Below are positions 3,124-11,537 of a DNA stretch of 54,763 nt, piece by piece. The position numbers and the translations under genes are program-made. Location of the stretch: the IMG/VR virus record IMGVR_UViG_3300047284_000338, positions 1-54,763 of that record. The stretch is one strand, 5' to 3'. Numbering within the stretch: position 1 is the stretch's first letter; each line of letters starts with the position of its first letter. Source of the DNA: a virus (lineage: Duplodnaviria; Caudoviricetes). The notes below the pieces were generated by a model. It was given only the letters and a program-made list of their open reading frames with translations. It searched no databases and was not told where the DNA came from.

Positions 3124-4757
3124 TGGGCATTCGCACTCGATTGATGAGCGCCCTCGGCTTCGGGCCGAAGGAAGTCGCTCCGGCAAAACGTCGCCGCCGC
3201 ACATATGCGGGCGCGGTGATCAACCGGCTGACCAGCGACTGGATCGCGCACGGCACCAGCGCCGACGCGGAGATCAAGACCAGCCTGCGCAAGCTGCGCG
3301 ATCGCTCGCGCCAGATGGTGCGGGACAACCCGTACGCCCGACAGGCCAAGCGCACCACGCAGATCAACGTGGTGGGCCAGGGCGTGAAGATGCAGTCGCA
3401 GGTGATGACCCTGCGCGGCAACAAGCGCGACGAGCGGATCAACGCACTGCTCGAAAGCAAGTGGGAGCGCTGGTGCCGCGCTGATCACTGCGACGTGGCC
3501 GGCCGCAACAGCTTCCACTCGTTCGAGTGGCTGGCCGCCGGTGCGCTGCCCGAGAGCGGCGAGGTGATCTTCAGGATCCACAAGCGTGCGTTCGGCGGCA
3601 GCAAGATCCCGCTGGCTCTGGAGATCATCGAGAGCGATCTGCTCGACGACGAGTACAACGGCGCCGTGAGCGCCAAGGGAAACGAGTGGCGCATGGGGGT
3701 CGAGATCAACCCCTACGGCCGGCCGGTGCGCTACGCCTTCCTGACCCGCCACCCGGGCGATTACTGGTTCCAGGGGCAGCCTGACCGGGAGAACGTGAAG
3801 CACGTCTTCCTGCCGGCGAGCGAGGTCATCCACCTCTTCATCCCTGAGCGCCCCAATCAGCACCGTGGCGTGCCCTGGTTTGCACCTGTGATCGGCGATG
3901 CCCACCAGCTGGCGGGCTACGAAGAGGCCGCGGTGATCCGCGCCCGGTCGACCGCGGCGCTGATGGGCTTCATCACCAGCCCCGAAGGCGAGCTCGATGC
4001 CGATGACGTCGAGGAAGGCCAGCGCATCACCGAGTTCGAGCCCGGGGTCTTCAAGTACCTCGACGGCGGCCAGAGCGTGATCGTTCCCGATCTGCGGTCG
4101 CCTGACGCGCAGTACGAGGACTTCGTGCGGGCCAAGACTCGGCGCTTCGCGTCGGGTTTCGGCTGCTCCTATGAGACGCTGTCGAGGGACTTCTCGGAGA
4201 CCAACTACTCCAGCAGCCGGCTGTCGCTGCTCGAGGATCGCGACCACTGGAAGGTAGTGCAGAACTACCTGATTGAGAACTTCCACATGCGGGTGTTCCG
4301 CGAGTGGTTGGACGTAGCGGTTCTGAGCGGCGAACTTTCGCTGCCCGACTACGAATTGCGGCCCGAGCGCTACGACAACCCGAAGTGGCTGGCACGCGGT
4401 TGGACATGGGTCGACCCGCTCAAGGAGGTCAAGGCCTACCGCGAGATGGAAGCGGCCGGCTACATGACCAAGGCGCAGATCTGCGCACAGCTCGGCGGAG
4501 ACCTGGACGAGAACCTCCAGCAGATCGCTCGCGAGCGGAAGACTGCCGCCGACCTCGGTGTCCAGCTCGACGCTGATTTGATGCAGCCAGCCCCTGGCGC
4601 ACCGGTGGAGCCCAGCACCACTGAAGAGCCTCCTGTCGACGAAGCGCAGTCGAATGTGACCGCAGAGCCTCGCCGCAAGCCGACGAGATCGCGTCGCAAA
4701 AAGACGACTACAGTTGAAACAGTTCAACCCGAGCGTCCAGAAGGGCCGCTTAACTGA
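3123..4757 (+). CDS. Portal protein, lambda family
   Basis: LRDRSRQMVRDNPYA, GVEINPYGRPVRY, RGVPWFAP, NYSSSRLSLLE, GWTWVDPLKE motifs typical of lambda gpB portals. Confidence 0.96.
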   Translation: MGIRTRLMSALGFGPKEVAPAKRRRRTYAGAVINRLTSDWIAHGTSADAEIKTSLRKLRDRSRQMVRDNPYARQAKRTTQINVVGQGVKMQSQVMTLRGNKRDERINALLESKWERWCRADHCDVAGRNSFHSFEWLAAGALPESGEVIFRIHKRAFGGSKIPLALEIIESDLLDDEYNGAVSAKGNEWRMGVEINPYGRPVRYAFLTRHPGDYWFQGQPDRENVKHVFLPASEVIHLFIPERPNQHRGVPWFAPVIGDAHQLAGYEEAAVIRARSTAALMGFITSPEGELDADDVEEGQRITEFEPGVFKYLDGGQSVIVPDLRSPDAQYEDFVRAKTRRFASGFGCSYETLSRDFSETNYSSSRLSLLEDRDHWKVVQNYLIENFHMRVFREWLDVAVLSGELSLPDYELRPERYDNPKWLARGWTWVDPLKEVKAYREMEAAGYMTKAQICAQLGGDLDENLQQIARERKTAADLGVQLDADLMQPAPGAPVEPSTTEEPPVDEAQSNVTAEPRRKPTRSRRKKTTTVETVQPERPEGPLN

Positions 4758-7033
4758 TGGACGAACTGCAGGAGAAAACTGAAACCCCGAACGACGAGCG
4801 TGCCATGCACGATCTGACTGAGGAGCAGGTGGCTGCGATCGGTGAAACTATTGCCGAGGTCGTGGCCGAGCACATGGCTGAGATTGTCGAGGACACGGTT
4901 GAGACGCTGTCGGGTGAAGACCCGGAAGCTGAGGCCGATGCTCAGGAAATGGCTGAAAAGACTGCCCCCATGCTGTCCGCGCCGGTGGACGAGTACAGGG
5001 CTCAGCCAGGCGAGCTGAAGGTCGGCGATTTCGTGAGCTGGAACAGCTCCGGCGGCCGTGCTCGCGGACAGATCGAGCACATCATGCGCGAGGGCACGCT
5101 GGGCGTCCCCGACAGCGAGTTCAGCATCGAGGCGTCTGAAGAGGATCCCGCGGCCCTGATCCGCATCTTCCGTGAGGGCGCCGAAGGATGGGCGGCAACT
5201 GAGACAATGGTGGGTCACCGCTTCAGCACTCTGGCCAAGATCGAAGCCCTCCGGTCGATGGAAGGCAAGTATCAGCGCACCGAAACTACCGCTTTTGCGG
5301 AGGTGGAGGATCGAACCTTCGAGTTCCCCTTCAGCTCCGAGTATCCTGTGGCTCGCTACTTCGGCAACGAAGTGCTCAGCCACGAGATGGACGCCGCCGA
5401 TCTAAGCCGCCTCAACGATGGAGCTCCGCTCCTTTTCAATCACAACCCCGACAGGGTTGTGGGCGTCGTTGAGCGTGCTTGGATCGACGGCAAAAAGAAG
5501 CGGGGTTACGTCAAAGTGCGTTTTTCCCGCAACAGCTTCGCCAAGGAGGTGATGGCTGATGTCAAAGATGGCGTCCTTCGGGGTGTCAGCTTTGGCTATT
5601 CCATCAACAAGATGGAGGAGCGTGGCGACAACTTTGTAGCCACCGAATGGAGTCCGTACGAAGTCTCGGTCTGTAGCATCGCTGCAGATCCCAGCATCGG
5701 AATCGGCCGGTCGCTTGCGATCGACTCTGCGGCCACCGCCGCATCACCAACCCCAGAACCCAAGGTTCCTGAAATGGAAAACACCACCCCTGACGTGGAG
5801 GTGATCCGGTCCAAGGCCGTCGAGGCCGAGCGTAGCCGCATCGCCACCATCACCGCTCTCGGTGAAAAGCATGGCCTCCGTGATCTCGCTCGCGAGCTCA
5901 TCGACGGCGGTCGCACCGTGGACGAGGCCCGTGCCGCCGTCCTGGAAAAAATGGAAACTCGCGCCTCCAAAGTGGAACACCGCATCGCCGACGAAAAGGC
6001 CTCCGAAATCGGCCTTTCTGACAAGGAAGCCCGCAGCTTCTCCTTCCTGCGTGCTCTGAACTATCTCGCCAACCCTGGCGACAAGGAAGTTGCCAAGGCC
6101 GCCGCTTTCGAGCGTGAGGTTTCCGAGGCTGCCTCCAAGGCCTACGGCAAGCCCGCCAACGGCATCATGGTGCCCACCGACGTGCTGCGTCGCGACCTGG
6201 CCACCAGCCCCGCAAGCGCCGGCGGCAACCTCGTTGCTACCGACCTGCTGGCCGCCTCGTTCATCGAGCTGCTCCGCAACAAGCTGGCTCTCGCCAACGT
6301 GGGCGCCACTGTGCTGAACGGCCTGCAGGGCAACATCGCCATCCCCAAGCAGACCGGTGCTGCCACCGCGTACTGGGTTGGTGAGGGCAACTCCCCCACC
6401 GAGAGCCAGGAAGTGCTCGGCCAGGTCACGATGTCGCCCAAGACCGTGGGTGCCTTCGTCGACTACAGCCGCCGCCTGCTGCTCCAGTCCTCGATCGACG
6501 TTGAGCAGATGGTCCGCAACGACCTGGCTCGCGTGATCGCCCTGGAGATCGACCGCGCTGGCATCTACGGCTCGGGCAACAGCAACCAGCCCCTGGGTCT
6601 GATCAACACCGTCGGCATCAACACCAAGGCCCTGACCGGCTACGGCACCTTCGCCGAGCTGATCGACATGGAAACCGAGGTGGCCAAGGACAACGCCGAC
6701 GCCGGCTCGCTGTTCTACCTGATGAACGCCGCTGCCCGTGGCGCTCTGAAGTCCACCCCCAAGTCGACCTCTGCCGTGGCCGCTGGCTTCGTGTACGAGA
6801 ACGATCAAGTGAACGGCTACGGCGCTGTGGTCTCCAACCAGCTCGCCCTGGACGACATCCTGTTCGGTGCCTTCGATCAGATGATCATGGGCATGTGGTC
6901 CGGCCTGGATCTGACCCTGGATCCCTACGCCGGCGCCACCAGCGGCACCGTGCGGATCATCGCCCTGCAGGACGTCGACTTCGCTGTGAAGCAGCCCGGC
7001 GCCTTCTGCTACGGCACCGGCGCTCTGAGCTGA
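4757..7033 (+). CDS. Prohead protease-major capsid protein fusion (HK97 fold)
   Basis: Protease domain (FSSEYPV, PLLFNHN, VSFGY, PYEVSVCSIAAD) followed by HK97-type capsid (GGNLVATDL, AYWVGEG, MSPKTVGA); single ORF. Confidence 0.93.
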   Translation: MDELQEKTETPNDERAMHDLTEEQVAAIGETIAEVVAEHMAEIVEDTVETLSGEDPEAEADAQEMAEKTAPMLSAPVDEYRAQPGELKVGDFVSWNSSGGRARGQIEHIMREGTLGVPDSEFSIEASEEDPAALIRIFREGAEGWAATETMVGHRFSTLAKIEALRSMEGKYQRTETTAFAEVEDRTFEFPFSSEYPVARYFGNEVLSHEMDAADLSRLNDGAPLLFNHNPDRVVGVVERAWIDGKKKRGYVKVRFSRNSFAKEVMADVKDGVLRGVSFGYSINKMEERGDNFVATEWSPYEVSVCSIAADPSIGIGRSLAIDSAATAASPTPEPKVPEMENTTPDVEVIRSKAVEAERSRIATITALGEKHGLRDLARELIDGGRTVDEARAAVLEKMETRASKVEHRIADEKASEIGLSDKEARSFSFLRALNYLANPGDKEVAKAAAFEREVSEAASKAYGKPANGIMVPTDVLRRDLATSPASAGGNLVATDLLAASFIELLRNKLALANVGATVLNGLQGNIAIPKQTGAATAYWVGEGNSPTESQEVLGQVTMSPKTVGAFVDYSRRLLLQSSIDVEQMVRNDLARVIALEIDRAGIYGSGNSNQPLGLINTVGINTKALTGYGTFAELIDMETEVAKDNADAGSLFYLMNAAARGALKSTPKSTSAVAAGFVYENDQVNGYGAVVSNQLALDDILFGAFDQMIMGMWSGLDLTLDPYAGATSGTVRIIALQDVDFAVKQPGAFCYGTGALS

Positions 7034-7035
7034 GC

Positions 7036-8052
7036 ATGATCGCTGGGCTGATTCAGGCCAAGCGGAATTACAACCCCTCCCTGGTTTCGACCGGGGAGGG
7101 CTTTCTGTTGGCGTACCGGTCCGAACCGGAAGACTTCAAGGTCAGTGAGATCGTACTGGCCGAGCTCGACGCAGCTCGCAATGTGCTGCGCAACCAGCGG
7201 CTGAAAGTGCCCGGGGCCCCGGCCGGCTGCTCGCTTGAGGACCCGCGACTGTTCTGGTGCGGGGGTGAGCTGCACCTGGCGTTCTCGATGGCTCGCTACG
7301 GCGAGGCCGATGGCTGGAAATGCGTGCAGGCCTACGGCCGGTTGAGCAAGAAGGGTCGCAACTGGACCCTGGGCTCCGTCTGGGTGCCGCAGTACGGCGC
7401 CAACGACTGGAGCAGCAAGGAAAAGAACTGGACGTTCTTCGAGGCCGAGGGTGCGCTGCGGTGCATCTACGACATGGGCGCCGCTGGCTGGACCGTGCTC
7501 GAGCTCGAGGGCGACGAGGCGGTTCAGGAATGGCGACACCCTGCCCTGCGGTGGCGCTGGGGCCGCCTGAGCGGCGGCACGCCGGCGGTCGACTGGCAGG
7601 GCCAGAAGCTCACGATGTTCCACTCGTGGGAGAAGCACCCGAGGCGTCACCGGCTTTATCACGCGGCCTGGGTGGCGTTCTCAGCGACGGCACCGCATGC
7701 GCCGACGCTGGTCTCGCCAGGTCCGGTGCTGACCGCGAAGGAAGAGTGGGGTACCCCTGAGGGCGCTCGCGGCTGGCAGCCGCTGTGCGTCTTCCCTGGC
7801 GGCCTCGAGCTGTTTGGGCAGAAGGCGCTGGTGTCCTACGGCCAGAACGATCTGCACTGCGCCATCGATGCGATCCGCGTCGACCGCCTGCAGCGCGTGG
7901 TGCAGAAGCCGAACATCCGCGGCGAGATCCGCATCCGTCTCACTGGTGACGTGATGATCGGCGGCCAGCCGGCATGGGCCGGGACTGAGGTTGCCGTGCA
8001 GGCAGCCGACGCGGCTAGCCTGATTGCACGAAGCAAGGCGGTGCCGTTGTGA
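7036..8052 (+). CDS. Five-bladed beta-propeller glycoside hydrolase/phosphorylase-like protein (GH130/GH43 clan-like) with short C-terminal phage head-protein-like domain
   Basis: YNPSL, EDPRLF, EKNWTFF, LSGGTP, VFPGGL, VSYGQND motifs; ATG at 7036, 2 nt after the capsid stop. Confidence 0.7.
   Translation: MIAGLIQAKRNYNPSLVSTGEGFLLAYRSEPEDFKVSEIVLAELDAARNVLRNQRLKVPGAPAGCSLEDPRLFWCGGELHLAFSMARYGEADGWKCVQAYGRLSKKGRNWTLGSVWVPQYGANDWSSKEKNWTFFEAEGALRCIYDMGAAGWTVLELEGDEAVQEWRHPALRWRWGRLSGGTPAVDWQGQKLTMFHSWEKHPRRHRLYHAAWVAFSATAPHAPTLVSPGPVLTAKEEWGTPEGARGWQPLCVFPGGLELFGQKALVSYGQNDLHCAIDAIRVDRLQRVVQKPNIRGEIRIRLTGDVMIGGQPAWAGTEVAVQAADAASLIARSKAVPL
7075..7109 (+). terminator. Rho-independent terminator-like hairpin after the capsid gene, inside the next CDS
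   Basis: CCCTCCCTGGT-TTCG-ACCGGGGAGGG, an 11-bp stem with UUCG loop, followed by CTTTCTGTT. Confidence 0.7.
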
Positions 8053-8498
8053 TCACCGAAAACCTCGACTTGTTCCTCGACGATTTCGGCGTTCAGTGCG
8101 TCAGTGGTGTCATCACTGGTGCTGGAATCCTGGACATGCCCAGCCAGGTCGTTGCCGACGGCATGGTCCTGACCACCGACTACAAGCTGACGTGCAAAGC
8201 AGCAGATTTCGGGGGTCTTGTGTACGGCGATGGCATCACTGTTGATGGCGTGAATTATCAGGTGCGCGAGACCATGCGCATCGACGATGGGCGCTTTGTT
8301 GAGCTGATGCTCACCAAACTTGCGCCCGACGTGGTGGCGCCCGGTGGCCAGCCGCGAGAGTTCGGTTTGGCCGATCTTTCCGACGTCACGATTCGATCCC
8401 CGCAGGCCGGCGATCGCCTTGTGTTCAATGGCAGCCAGTGGGTGGACGAGGAAGAAGCAGACGGCACTAACGTGTTGGATGGAGGCGGTGCGGACTGA
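8049..8498 (+). CDS. Head-closure / head-tail joining protein with C-terminal fibre-like extension
   Basis: Position; 'GDGITVDGVNYQVRETMRIDDG' FII-like pattern; extension LADLSDV...GDRLVFNGSQWV...DGGGAD. Confidence 0.7.
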   Translation: MITENLDLFLDDFGVQCVSGVITGAGILDMPSQVVADGMVLTTDYKLTCKAADFGGLVYGDGITVDGVNYQVRETMRIDDGRFVELMLTKLAPDVVAPGGQPREFGLADLSDVTIRSPQAGDRLVFNGSQWVDEEEADGTNVLDGGGAD

Positions 8499-8501
8499 CC
8501 C

Positions 8502-8810
8502 ATGACTCGGCAGCGGATCAAACTACGGCGCGATACCGCTGCAGCTTGGGCGGCTGCGAACCCAGTGCTGCTTGCTGGTGAGGCCGGGTTTGAGAGCGAT
8601 ACGCGACTGCTGAAAATTGGAAACGGCTCGTCTGCCTGGAATTCACTTTCCTACGTGGCTGGTGGAGTCAGTTCACTCGCCCAGCTGGTCGATGTCGACG
8701 CAACCAACTGCGTCGACGGCAGCGTCCTCATCTACGATGGCGCTATTGCCAAGTTCGTGGCCAGCCCACTGAACACAAAGCTCACGCTGACTGACGGAGG
8801 CAACTTCTGA
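8502..8810 (+). CDS. Small fibre/adaptor protein with Mtd-N/hyaluronidase-N-like domain
   Basis: IKLRRDTAAAWAAANPVLLAGEAGFESDTRLLKIGNG is the typical Mtd N-terminal domain pattern. Confidence 0.75.
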   Translation: MTRQRIKLRRDTAAAWAAANPVLLAGEAGFESDTRLLKIGNGSSAWNSLSYVAGGVSSLAQLVDVDATNCVDGSVLIYDGAIAKFVASPLNTKLTLTDGGNF

Positions 8811-10273
8811 TGGCCAATACGCTGCGGATCAAGCGCCGTGCCTCCGGTTCACCCGGCGCACCAGCAAGCCTTCAGAACGCCGAACTCGCTTACAACGAGG
8901 TCGACGACGTTCTCTACTACGGCAAGGGCACCGGCGGTGCCGGTGGCAGCGCCACAACCATTCCTGCAATCGCAGGTTCAGGCGCCTATCTGACACTGAG
9001 CTCGGCGCAGACCGTCAGCGGCAACAAGACTTTCACGGGCGACGTCGTCGTCCCGACTCAGGCCAGCAGCGACAACAGCACCAATGCGGCCACCACGGCC
9101 TTCGTAAAGGCCCAGGGTTACCTGACCGGCAACCAGAGCATCACCTTCAGCGGAGATGCCTCGGGCAGCGGCACCACCTCGGTCACCCTGACCTTGGCCA
9201 GCGTTGGCACTGCCGGCACCTACACCAAGGTCACCACCGACGCGAAGGGCCGCGTCACCTCTGGCACCACGCTCAGCGCTTCGGACATCCCGACGCTGAC
9301 CGCTGCCAAGATCAGCGACTTTGACACCCAGGTTCGGACCAACCGTCTGGACCAGATGGCCGCGCCGACCGCGTCGGTGTCGCTGAACAGTCAGAAGATT
9401 ACCAACCTGGCTACGCCGACCGCTGACACCGACGCGGCTACCAAGGCGTATGTGGACGCCTCGCGCAGCGGCCTTGACGTTAAGGCCAGCGTCCGCGCTG
9501 CAACGACCTCAAATCTCCAGAACATCAGCGGCATTCAAATAATTGACGGTGTCACCCTTGTCGCTGGTGACCGCGTGCTGGTCAAAAACCAGAGCACGGC
9601 CAGCACCAACGGCATCTATGTGGTGGCGGCCAGCACTTGGTCCCGCTCGACCGACGCCGACACCGATGCCGAAGTCACCTCCGGCATGTTCACCTTTGTC
9701 GAGGAAGGTACGGTCAATGCCGACAGCGGCTGGGTCCTTAGCACCAACAACCCCATCGTCGTCGGATCGACTTCACTGACCTTCGCCCAGTTCTCTGGCG
9801 CTGGCCAGATTGACGCTGGCGCTGGCTTGGTGAAGAGCGGCAACACCCTGAGCGTGGGCACCGCCTCCACCGCCCGGGTCGTCGTCAACGCCGACAACAT
9901 CGACCTGGCCACGATCGGCACCGCCGGCACCTACCGCTCGGTGACCGTCGACGCCTATGGCCGCGTCTCGGCCGGCACCAACCCCACCACGCTGGCCGGT
10001 TACGGCATCGTCGACGCCCAGCCGCTGGATGCCACGCTGACGGCCCTGGCGGGCGTCACGGTGGCCGCAAACCAGCTGATCTACGCCACCGGCGCTGACA
10101 CCTTCTCCGTCGCCTCGCTGACCGCTTTCGGCCGCAGCCTGATCGACGACGCAGATGCTGCCGCCGGCCGCACCACCCTGGGCCTCGGCACTCTCGCCAC
10201 CCAGGACGCCAGCAACGTGAACATCACGGGCGGCGCGATCGACAACATCACTTTTGACGGCGGCACCTTCTAA
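8810..10273 (+). CDS. Fibre protein (neck/whisker or tail fibre-like)
   Basis: Thr/Ala/Gly-rich; GTYTKVTTDAKGRV repeats; DRVLVKNQ..NGIY domain; C-terminal DGGTF. Confidence 0.8.
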   Translation: MANTLRIKRRASGSPGAPASLQNAELAYNEVDDVLYYGKGTGGAGGSATTIPAIAGSGAYLTLSSAQTVSGNKTFTGDVVVPTQASSDNSTNAATTAFVKAQGYLTGNQSITFSGDASGSGTTSVTLTLASVGTAGTYTKVTTDAKGRVTSGTTLSASDIPTLTAAKISDFDTQVRTNRLDQMAAPTASVSLNSQKITNLATPTADTDAATKAYVDASRSGLDVKASVRAATTSNLQNISGIQIIDGVTLVAGDRVLVKNQSTASTNGIYVVAASTWSRSTDADTDAEVTSGMFTFVEEGTVNADSGWVLSTNNPIVVGSTSLTFAQFSGAGQIDAGAGLVKSGNTLSVGTASTARVVVNADNIDLATIGTAGTYRSVTVDAYGRVSAGTNPTTLAGYGIVDAQPLDATLTALAGVTVAANQLIYATGADTFSVASLTAFGRSLIDDADAAAGRTTLGLGTLATQDASNVNITGGAIDNITFDGGTF

Positions 10274-10321
10274 GGCGCTCCGCCGTCAGTCCTGTCTACA
10301 TAGGCGCTCTCGGACAGCCAC

Positions 10322-10918
10322 ATGGCCAACACGTTCAAGCTGAAACGGTCGTCGGTCGCCAGCAAGGTGCCGACGACCGGGGATCTACAGCTCGGTGAGC
10401 TTGCGCTCAACACCTACGACGGCAAGCTCTACACGAAGAAGGACAACGGCACCGCGTCGATCGTTGAGATTGGCGCCGGAGGTGGCGGAACCAGCCTGTA
10501 CGCCGCCCAGGCGTACAACACCGGCTCGATCTCTGGCGTTACGACTGCAGCAGCGATCTCGTTCGGGGCGGAAGCGTTCGACAACGACAACATGTGGGCA
10601 TCAGGCTCGCCCACCCGCATGACCACACCCCGAGCAGGGGTTTATCGGGTCGAATTTTCAGCGCTCGTTACGTTTACCGCTGAAACCTATGTTCTAACGT
10701 TTTCTCTCCGAAAAAATGGCGTCGAAGTTCGCAGCTTCGTCTACCGTGAAAACTGGCGCTGGTTCAACGGAGACACTTTCACAGTGACTTTCAGCGACAT
10801 CGAGTCACTGGCGGCCAACGACTATCTGGAGGTATTTCACTCGGGGGATTCGACGGGCTACTCGATCGGGACGGCCGCAGCTTCCCGGGCTCAATTGTCC
10901 ATCTACCGGGTGTCCTGA
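10322..10918 (+). CDS. Fibre tip protein, N-terminal Mtd-N-like domain plus C1q/TNF-like C-terminal domain
   Basis: KLKRSSVASKVP...LQLGELALNTYDGKLY; C-terminal FDND...TPRAGVYRV...LAANDYLEV C1q-like pattern. Confidence 0.65.
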   Translation: MANTFKLKRSSVASKVPTTGDLQLGELALNTYDGKLYTKKDNGTASIVEIGAGGGGTSLYAAQAYNTGSISGVTTAAAISFGAEAFDNDNMWASGSPTRMTTPRAGVYRVEFSALVTFTAETYVLTFSLRKNGVEVRSFVYRENWRWFNGDTFTVTFSDIESLAANDYLEVFHSGDSTGYSIGTAAASRAQLSIYRVS

Positions 10919-10920
10919 CC

Positions 10921-11343
10921 ATGACCAAGCGCGAACAGATCCTCGCCGCCATCCGCACGGCGCTGAACGGCACAACCGGTGTCGCCAATCGCATCTACCG
11001 CAGCCGGGTGGAACCGCTGGCCAGGTCGGAAAGTCCTGCGATCGTCGTGGAGCCGATCAACGATGTCTGCCAGCAGAACACGAGCCTGCCCACGCTGGAC
11101 TGGTCGCTTCTGGTCCGCGTCGCAGTCGTGGTTCGGTCGAACATTCCAGATCAGGCCGCAGACGCAACCGTTGAATCGCTGCATTCCAAGCTGATGGCAG
11201 ACCTATCACTTGGTGGTCTGGCGATCGATATTCAGCCAGTTCAAGTAGAGTTTCAGGCAGTGGAGGCAGATGTCCCGGCCGGTGTCGTCATGTGCGACTA
11301 CCGTGTTCAGTACAGAACCTCTGTCACCAACCTTGGAGCCTGA
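10921..11343 (+). CDS. Tail terminator (gpU-like)
   Basis: MTKREQILAAI...RIYRSRVEPL...LMADLSLGGLA; lies before the tail tube gene. Confidence 0.75.
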   Translation: MTKREQILAAIRTALNGTTGVANRIYRSRVEPLARSESPAIVVEPINDVCQQNTSLPTLDWSLLVRVAVVVRSNIPDQAADATVESLHSKLMADLSLGGLAIDIQPVQVEFQAVEADVPAGVVMCDYRVQYRTSVTNLGA

Positions 11344-11354
11344 TGATGGCTGCC

Positions 11355-11537
11355 ATGATCGACGAATACCATGGTCAGGGAGGCACTTACCTCCTCGACC
11401 CAAAAACCGGCAAGCGGAAGCTCGTCGAGCGGACAGAGCCGGGCCAGCTCCAAACCCCATCTGAGGTAACCAGCGATGCCGCTCCTCTCGAGAAAGCGCC
11501 TGATCTTGGCGAAGACCGAGACGACCTACGGGACTGA
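11355..11537 (+). CDS. Small hypothetical protein
   Basis: ORF MIDEYHGQGGTYLLDPKTGKRKLVERT...; overlaps the tube gene start. Confidence 0.5.
   Translation: MIDEYHGQGGTYLLDPKTGKRKLVERTEPGQLQTPSEVTSDAAPLEKAPDLGEDRDDLRD

Follow-up and report, generated by a model that had tools for sequence, protein, structure and literature searches.

A neck-gene cassette predicted to encode a serially jointed four-protein fibre in an uncultured freshwater siphophage

Mtd of Bordetella phage BPP-1 is the founder of the Pfam family Mtd_N (PF18454). This protein is described as occupying the distal ends of the phage's tail fibres (PMC3240598). In phage T4, trimeric gp36 is reported to bind the N-terminal region of gp37 (PMC3004832; PMC5537660), and the Anabaena cyanomyophage A-1(L) is described as bearing a bead-chain neck fibre, gp82-gp81(x14)-gp80, in which three proteins are joined head to tail (PMC10966104). 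The stopper of phage lambda, gpFII, is reported to be a hexamer with a C-terminal loop that touches gpU (PMC10721106). A non-exhaustive literature search found no description of a stopper-borne fibre or of a joint between a C-terminal Asp-Gly-Gly (DGG) tail and the N-terminal head of the next protein; no stopper-borne fibre was found among the neck, stopper and whisker structures that this search listed, and Mtd_N was met as a domain annotated in a tail-tip protein only, in one relevant report. Here we analyze a record of 54,763 bases from an uncultured freshwater phage (Caudoviricetes; IMG/VR record IMGVR_UViG_3300047284_000338; complete, CheckV 100%), the whole of which is referred to as the window, and in particular four consecutive genes at positions 8049-10918, whose products probably assemble, through serial, class-specific joints, into a single linear appendage that starts at the phage neck.

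The gene layout of the window is that of a siphophage, consisting of terminase, portal, capsid fusion, a GH130-like gene, the four-gene cassette, terminator, tube, chaperone and tape measure. The cassette and its downstream border comprise the following features.

8049..8498, + strand: stopper, assigned as a gpFII-type head-tail joining protein, 149 amino acids (aa); core ~aa 1-95 followed by a C-terminal extension; ends VLDGGGAD
8361..8489, + strand: module of the stopper extension, aa 105-147 (FGLADLSDV...GDRLVFNGSQWV...), sharing homology with the adaptor's C-terminal half
8472..8495, + strand: tail 1, VLDGGGAD, at the C-terminus of the stopper; class GG-small, with Mtd_N heads as partner
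8502..8810, + strand: 102-aa adaptor; Mtd_N head aa 1-54, module aa 57-94, tail 2 TLTDGGNF (nucleotides (nt) 8784-8807)
8810..10273, + strand: 487-aa shaft; class-B head aa 1-42, fibre domain aa ~161-369, tail 3 ITFDGGTF (nt 10247-10270)
10322..10918, + strand: 198-aa tip; class-C head aa 1-53 (T4 gp37-N-like), predicted TNF/C1q-like jelly-roll aa ~65-198, no tail
10921..11343, + strand: tail terminator, gpU-like (phrog_4204, E 4e-36), downstream border of the cassette

The adaptor begins with MTRQRIKLRRDT, the shaft with MANTLRIKRRAS...AELAYNE and the tip with MANTFKLKRSS...GELALN, and the genes lie 3 nt apart at the first border, overlap by 1 nt at the second and lie 48 nt apart at the third. 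The open reading frames (ORFs) are exactly as described in the original prediction made on this DNA, with three consecutive DGG endings (VLDGGGAD, TLTDGGNF and ITFDGGTF) and a last protein whose C-terminus is devoid of DGG.

In the proposed architecture, the stopper would form, by analogy with lambda, a hexameric ring between the head adaptor and the tail terminator, and its tail (...LDGGGAD) would plug into the Mtd_N head of the adaptor. The adaptor repeats the module and would plug its own tail (...TLTDGGNF) into the RIKRR head of the shaft, whose ...TFDGGTF end would in turn plug into the KLKRS head of the tip, resembling the N-terminal part of T4 gp37. The jelly-roll of the tip would then bind a host surface glycan or protein. 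The physical binding of tails to heads, the position on the virion neck and the copy number are what we infer from the gene sequences. A complex prediction of three adaptors with three shaft heads (aa 1-110) scored 0.70, against 0.52 for a control in which chain 1 was replaced, and speaks neither for nor against binding.

The root of the chain had been placed on the head-closure protein, an identity of the first protein that several lines of evidence bear out. The 149-aa protein is a member of Pfam family Phage_attach (PF05354; aa 8-81, E 7e-12, 46.2 bits against a cut-off of 26) and matches phrog_24448 as well as phrog_82, 'head closure Hc1' (E 1e-5). Core blocks of its AlphaFold2 model reach a predicted local distance difference test (pLDDT) score of 87-91, and the top Foldseek matches of the model are the lambda neck chains 8k37_M (E 3.9e-5, target template modelling (TM) score 0.58) and 8xow_f and the R4C stopper 8gtf_M. 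Also, its gene occupies the place of a stopper gene, with capsid genes upstream and the tail terminator downstream. Sequence and modelled fold thus both identify the protein as a stopper of the gpFII type.

An alignment of 23 homologues resolves the stopper extension into a Pro/Gly linker, a module of the form GL.DL.DV....Q.GD.L.Y.G..WV and a DGGGA(S/D) tail. This region (aa ~96-149) is modelled with pLDDT 47-71, low values as expected of a flexible arm. Stopper residues 105-147 align with adaptor residues 57-101 by profile comparison (hhalign 91.7%, E 7.8e-7), although pairwise BLASTP gives a weak match (E 0.043), so that the L.DL.DV...G..L...G...V segment noticed earlier in the first two proteins is indeed shared between them. 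The module (aa 107-139) also matches the tail fibre family phrog_9729 (E 3e-4).

The comparative analysis drew on 124 viral loci (labelled L followed by a number), 44 of them containing a homologue of the stopper and 80 an adaptor relative, in which 6745 ORFs of at least 45 aa were called on both strands. Heads were detected with a hidden Markov model (HMM) seeded on the three N-termini of the window and run for three iterations, and tails were scored under a strict (DGG.{0,3}) and a relaxed ([DNSG][GACS]G.{1,4}) definition.

Co-occurrence across phages, which had been put forward as a check of the idea, came out in favour of a stopper-borne root. Among 46 distinct stopper homologues, 32 carry a Gly-Gly tail, six have no extension and eight have other C-termini. 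A head-bearing gene lies directly next to 30 of the 32 tailed stoppers, the exceptions being L030, where the contig ends, and L031. It follows none of the eight stoppers with other C-termini and none of the six without extension (91-94 aa), all of which have the terminator 3-62 nt downstream and no fibre genes. In L017 the stopper and its module are fused to a distal domain that is 62% identical (87/140, E 7e-54) to the C-terminus of a 372-aa Mtd_N protein of L006, which is there encoded by a separate gene after a tailed stopper; a different small domain of distal type is joined to the stopper in L019, L021, L024 and L025. These fusions suggest that the C-terminus of the stopper displays fibre parts, either covalently or via its tail. 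The stopper lineage can be read as a natural series, going from no extension, through a tail with cassettes that hold between one gene and four or more, to direct fusions with distal domains.

A chain of this kind could also be real with the stopper tail acting as a transient recruiter or chaperone of the adaptor, or with the fibre ending elsewhere on the virion. A permanent symmetric joint would be awkward between a hexamer and a trimer, and contact between the gpFII C-terminal loop and gpU, as described for lambda (PMC10721106), might leave the extension partly buried. Nevertheless, the extension has a Pro/Gly linker, plus a module and a tail as in the adaptor, and the attachment of whole distal-type domains to the stopper in the five fusion loci makes sense only if its C-terminus is displayed, which renders a merely transient or displaced anchor unlikely.

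The pairing of tails and heads extends well beyond the stopper. The head HMM matched 186 ORFs, in 185 of which the head is N-terminal and in none of which it follows an internal DGG. Distinct ORFs with a DGG.{0,3} ending number 83, and 66 of them have a head gene directly downstream; the 17 misses include at least five contig ends (L030, L048, L057, L062, L063), a diverged head in L015 and several short spurious ORFs. Conversely, the ORF upstream of 122 distinct head proteins ends in the strict motif in 65 cases and in the relaxed motif in 90, and the motif is present in the majority of members in 22 (strict) or 37 (relaxed) of 55 head-protein clusters. Among the other distinct ORFs of the 124 loci and the window, partners excluded, the strict motif terminates only 18 of 4971 and the relaxed one 108 of 4971. 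Because the strict ending is so rare in this background, the three consecutive DGG endings of the window lie far beyond chance.

Tails are carried by 25 unrelated families, collagen-repeat proteins included. Proteins with collagen triple-helix repeats and the endings IDGGSV, IDCGGV, IDCGGPND or IDGGTA are encoded directly before Mtd_N genes (L080 3964-6010, L116 1798-2901, L113 5556-5846, L095 2299-2670), an arrangement that fits a trimer-to-trimer joint. Two further recurring gene-border pairings, which may be extra joint types, were observed in L071-L119 (for example L073 5771-6603, L096 1095-3300 and L109 1320-3260). In the first, C-termini of the form ...(Y/F)(R/K/Q)V(V/I)(V/I)(V/I)G precede N-termini of the form M(S/A)(K/R)(K/R)F(L)TP...GD(V/L)(Y/F)(F/Y)NT; in the second, C-termini ...W(L/Y)(V/I).GD(I/V)(S/A) precede ...SRLALTP.N...GDLYYNT on 67-73-aa adaptors ending NGGTP.

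Conserved gene borders may also arise as DNA-level linkers for homologous recombination between modules, with no docking of proteins. The cassettes are indeed highly mosaic, the same heads and tails flanking very different middles, and the L017 fusion resembles recombination within the module. A second explanation, that read-through or frameshifting joins consecutive ORFs into one polypeptide, would draw on the very short gaps in the window. The 14 distinct junctions of the TLTDGGNF type bear on both. A single Thr/Ser change apart, all eight residues of the tail are the same at every junction, whereas third codon positions of the same tails are only 54% majority-identical, with all four Gly codons and six Leu codons in use, and the next gene starts between -1 and 53 nt away. 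Selection acts on the tail peptide rather than on the DNA. The combination of invariant residues, free synonymous sites and varying spacing argues against both a recombination linker and a translational fusion. Recombination may exploit the modules but does not explain their conservation, and recombination linkers are, in our judgement, a very improbable account. Fusion of the products is hardly credible, given that frames and spacings vary among relatives, that intergenic stops are present, and that heads are N-terminal with the single exception noted above and never lie behind an internal DGG.

The tails and heads fall into three classes, which pair as follows.

GG plus small residue tails (GGGA, GGSA, GGTP, AGGV and others) with head A, the RR(D/G)T...W Mtd_N type: 49 pairs (plus 7 left unclassified by the regular expressions)
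GG-NF tails with head B, MANT(L/I)RIKRR: 14/14 pairs
GG-[TSEV]F tails with head C, KLKRS...VP...GELA: 10 pairs (plus 4 unclassified, visibly of the same type)

No cross-class pair occurs among the 84 distinct tail/head pairs, and none of 20000 permutations reached the observed diagonal. Within class A, a post hoc subdivision is suggestive of finer matching, GG[GST]A tails being found with RRDT heads in 31 of 33 pairs and GGTP or [ACS]G-type tails with RRGT heads in 16 of 18. The window has three tails and three heads, one per class, and no further head anywhere; this specifies a single linear order, and nothing in it points to branching. Since the three tail classes match the three head classes, the order of assembly would be written in the sequences themselves. 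A different class order is found in L123 (3589-9366), where a five-protein chain reads DAGTVT, head, TLTDGGNF, head B, DGGEF, head C, DGGAA, head A; it includes a 137-aa protein ending TLTDGGNF, a 525-aa protein ending DGGEF, a small head-C protein ending DGGAA and an Mtd_N protein of 1124 aa.

This pairing also bears on the view that each protein is a fibre or decoration protein of its own, attached to the virion independently of the others. The DGG tail would then serve generally as a folding or trimerisation cap at the C-terminus and the N-domain as a cap at the N-terminus, the two being neighbours through the clustering of fibre genes. The middle domain of the shaft does resemble a capsid decoration protein (PDB 9nx3) and the tail fibre of the Legionella podophage LME-1 (9efk), described in PMC12407071; the PHROG names include 'head decoration', and fibre N-terminal domains commonly anchor to virion proteins. 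Yet the class of a tail predicts the class of the next head, the last gene of each chain has no tail, and tails also occur on head-less proteins such as the stopper and the collagen-like proteins. Moreover, a non-fibre neck protein is tailed only when a head gene follows, and in L017 a fibre distal domain resides on the stopper itself. Independence of the proteins is therefore doubtful, about as much so as a transient anchor. The notion that each DGG tail has its counterpart in the N-domain of the protein encoded next has gained strong comparative support from co-occurrence, the L017 fusion, strict class pairing and selection on the peptide, but the branching that was envisaged with it found none.

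The adaptor is a member of Mtd_N (52.9 bits against a cut-off of 26.3), with the match at its N-terminus (aa 6-44), and its head also matches the hyaluronidase N-termini of PDB entries 6x3m and 2c3f. The TLTDGGNF tail is invariant in 14/14 homologues, which are 44-69% identical overall. The 487-aa and 198-aa proteins fall outside Mtd_N, giving no match at E <= 0.1. Their heads are homologous to each other (hhalign 93.7%, E 1.8e-7) and to families of the T4 gp37-N type, and only a shared pattern links them to the Mtd_N-headed adaptor family (E 0.017 and 0.061), so that of the relatedness proposed for the three N-domains, the part concerning shaft and tip holds and the part concerning Mtd_N is reduced to this pattern. 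The shaft and tip heads thus appear to work like Mtd_N heads while lying outside that family. Across 16 shaft homologues the head is near-invariant and the remaining body variable, the strongly conserved stretch measuring ~75 residues; the shaft matches phrog_2647 and tail-fibre PHROGs.

Residues 1-60 of the tip match T4-type PHROG families named 'long tail fiber distal subunit'. The rest of the protein scores 20.1 bits against Pfam BclA_C (PF18573; E 6e-4), below the cut-off of 38. In its AlphaFold2 model (mean pLDDT 65) the domain blocks are mostly at 76-86, some at 46-67, and Foldseek retrieves 4-1BBL, C1QL1/3, C1QTNF5, BclA and F-BclA (E 1e-5 to 1e-4, target TM 0.55-0.72), all in keeping with a jelly-roll fold. 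The modelled tip is thus a TNF/C1q-like jelly-roll and likely the ligand-binding end of the appendage. The earlier description of a C1q- or lectin-like tip is upheld for the fold (Foldseek E ~1e-5), but BclA_C membership falls short and the binding activity was not supported. In L004 and L005 (9517-9837), a 106-aa ORF lies directly after the tip protein of the chain and before the terminator; it may be a fibre assembly chaperone.

Several observations weigh against a stopper-rooted, serially jointed appendage. The counts refer to distinct sequences from loci many of which are related, and not to independent events (55 head-protein clusters), and the head and tail classes were defined after inspection of the data. 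Sequence comparison does not establish homology of head A with heads B and C. The stopper of L031 retains its tail in degenerate form, NGGGA, yet lacks a cassette and is followed by the terminator after 59 nt, and in L037 an 87-aa protein with a GG-NF tail and no recognisable head follows a stopper without a GG tail, indicating that not every chain is rooted on a tailed stopper. By analogy with the hexameric lambda stopper, as described in PMC10721106, a symmetry mismatch with trimeric fibres is to be expected; six stopper tails could feed two trimeric heads, or six. Finally, a tailed stopper was not found in the cultured phages of the collection. The stopper matches only the cyanosiphophages S-LBS1, S-CBS1 and S-CBS3 there (5 records), the core alone being aligned, and the S-LBS1 stopper, the sole cultured one translated, is 111 aa long with no GG tail.

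Synechococcus phage S-LBS1 (L125, 5992-10794) encodes after its stopper proteins of 180 aa and 61 aa, a 568-aa 'tail fiber protein' and an integrase, followed by the terminator, so fibre-like genes also occur here in the absence of the tail/head code. Matches to the adaptor were obtained in 459 phage records, the largest group of which by organism name are Synechococcus/Prochlorococcus cyanophages. In a search for prophage relatives in genome contigs, 129 stretches were pattern-matched and 0 confirmed.

In the 758-aa ORF at 4757-7033 (+ strand), a Hva1_TUDOR-like domain (aa 90-136) and a prohead protease of the Peptidase_S78 type (aa 201-311) precede the major capsid protein (aa 489-754) within one reading frame. 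Between the capsid and stopper genes, a 338-aa ORF (7036-8052, + strand) matches Pfam Glyco_hydro_130, a beta-1,4-mannooligosaccharide phosphorylase family, at aa 181-289 (28.2 bits, cut-off 26) and matches no PHROG. The GH130-like protein is kept at the same position in many relatives (for example L001, L007, L009, L015, L038 and L040), others having a 59-64-aa protein there; a sugar-active enzyme fold within the head-neck module is unusual. That it might be a fusion with the small pre-stopper protein of relatives was considered and rejected, as BLASTP gave no alignment and there was no PHROG match. Between terminator and tube lies a small ORF (11292-11537, + strand; ...IDEYHGQGGTYLLDPKTGKRKLVERTEP...) that is conserved at that place in most relatives, with a length of 50-81 aa.

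If the joints are real, gene order together with a handful of terminal residues would allow the proximal protein, tip and root of fibres in uncultured phages to be predicted. The joints would also supply a small natural kit of plugs and sockets with which receptor-binding tips could be exchanged, and a siphophage stopper would prove able to serve additionally as the anchor of a neck fibre that can be exchanged. A broader proposal, for and against which we see about equal weight, is that a small combinatorial docking code (GG-small with Mtd_N, GG-NF with RIKRR and GG-[TS]F with KLKRS) governs fibre building in many unrelated phages, a tail of ~8 residues making any protein, a neck stopper or collagen rod included, a fibre root and, in this phage lineage, yielding an exchangeable receptor-binding fibre on the neck. 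Under such a code, the order, length and attachment site of fibres would be readable from gene sequence and could be re-programmed by tail swaps.

Compared with lambda gpFII and siphophage stoppers, the likeness of the window protein resides in its core, by Pfam score, fold (PDB 8k37, 8gtf) and gene position. Lambda gpFII is described as a protein of 117 aa with a short terminal loop; the window stopper instead adds ~55 residues of linker, module and tail, and its relatives, unlike gpFII, add whole distal domains. The distal half of the T4 long tail fibre is likewise made of separate gene products, encoded in order and joined end to end, and T4 gp37 (aa 6-48) matches the head HMM (E 1e-12). 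However, the T4 fibre is described as rooted on the baseplate (gp34 on gp9) rather than the neck and as including a monomeric knee protein, gp35, and gp36 ends ...VQDFGYY, without the DGG tail of the window proteins. BPP-1 shares with the window the Mtd_N head, as in the adaptor, and a Gly-Gly-ending gene upstream of it: bbp9, a putative tail fibre gene located 15 nt upstream of mtd, ends ...LADLGGIA, a related tail. There, a single joint would lie at the tip of a podophage fibre, whereas the window would have three serial joints of three classes, the first plug being on a neck protein. In A-1(L) the likeness to the predicted window appendage is that of a multi-protein neck fibre in a cyanophage with a distal bead of carbohydrate-binding type. 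The putative A-1(L) neck-fibre proteins, assigned by length and order, have no heads (HMM E > 0.08) and no GG tails, and the anchor is described as a separate gp82N on a pentadecameric neck ring rather than an extension of the stopper. As judged from its genes, the window system would thus belong among the multi-protein phage fibres and neck fibres.

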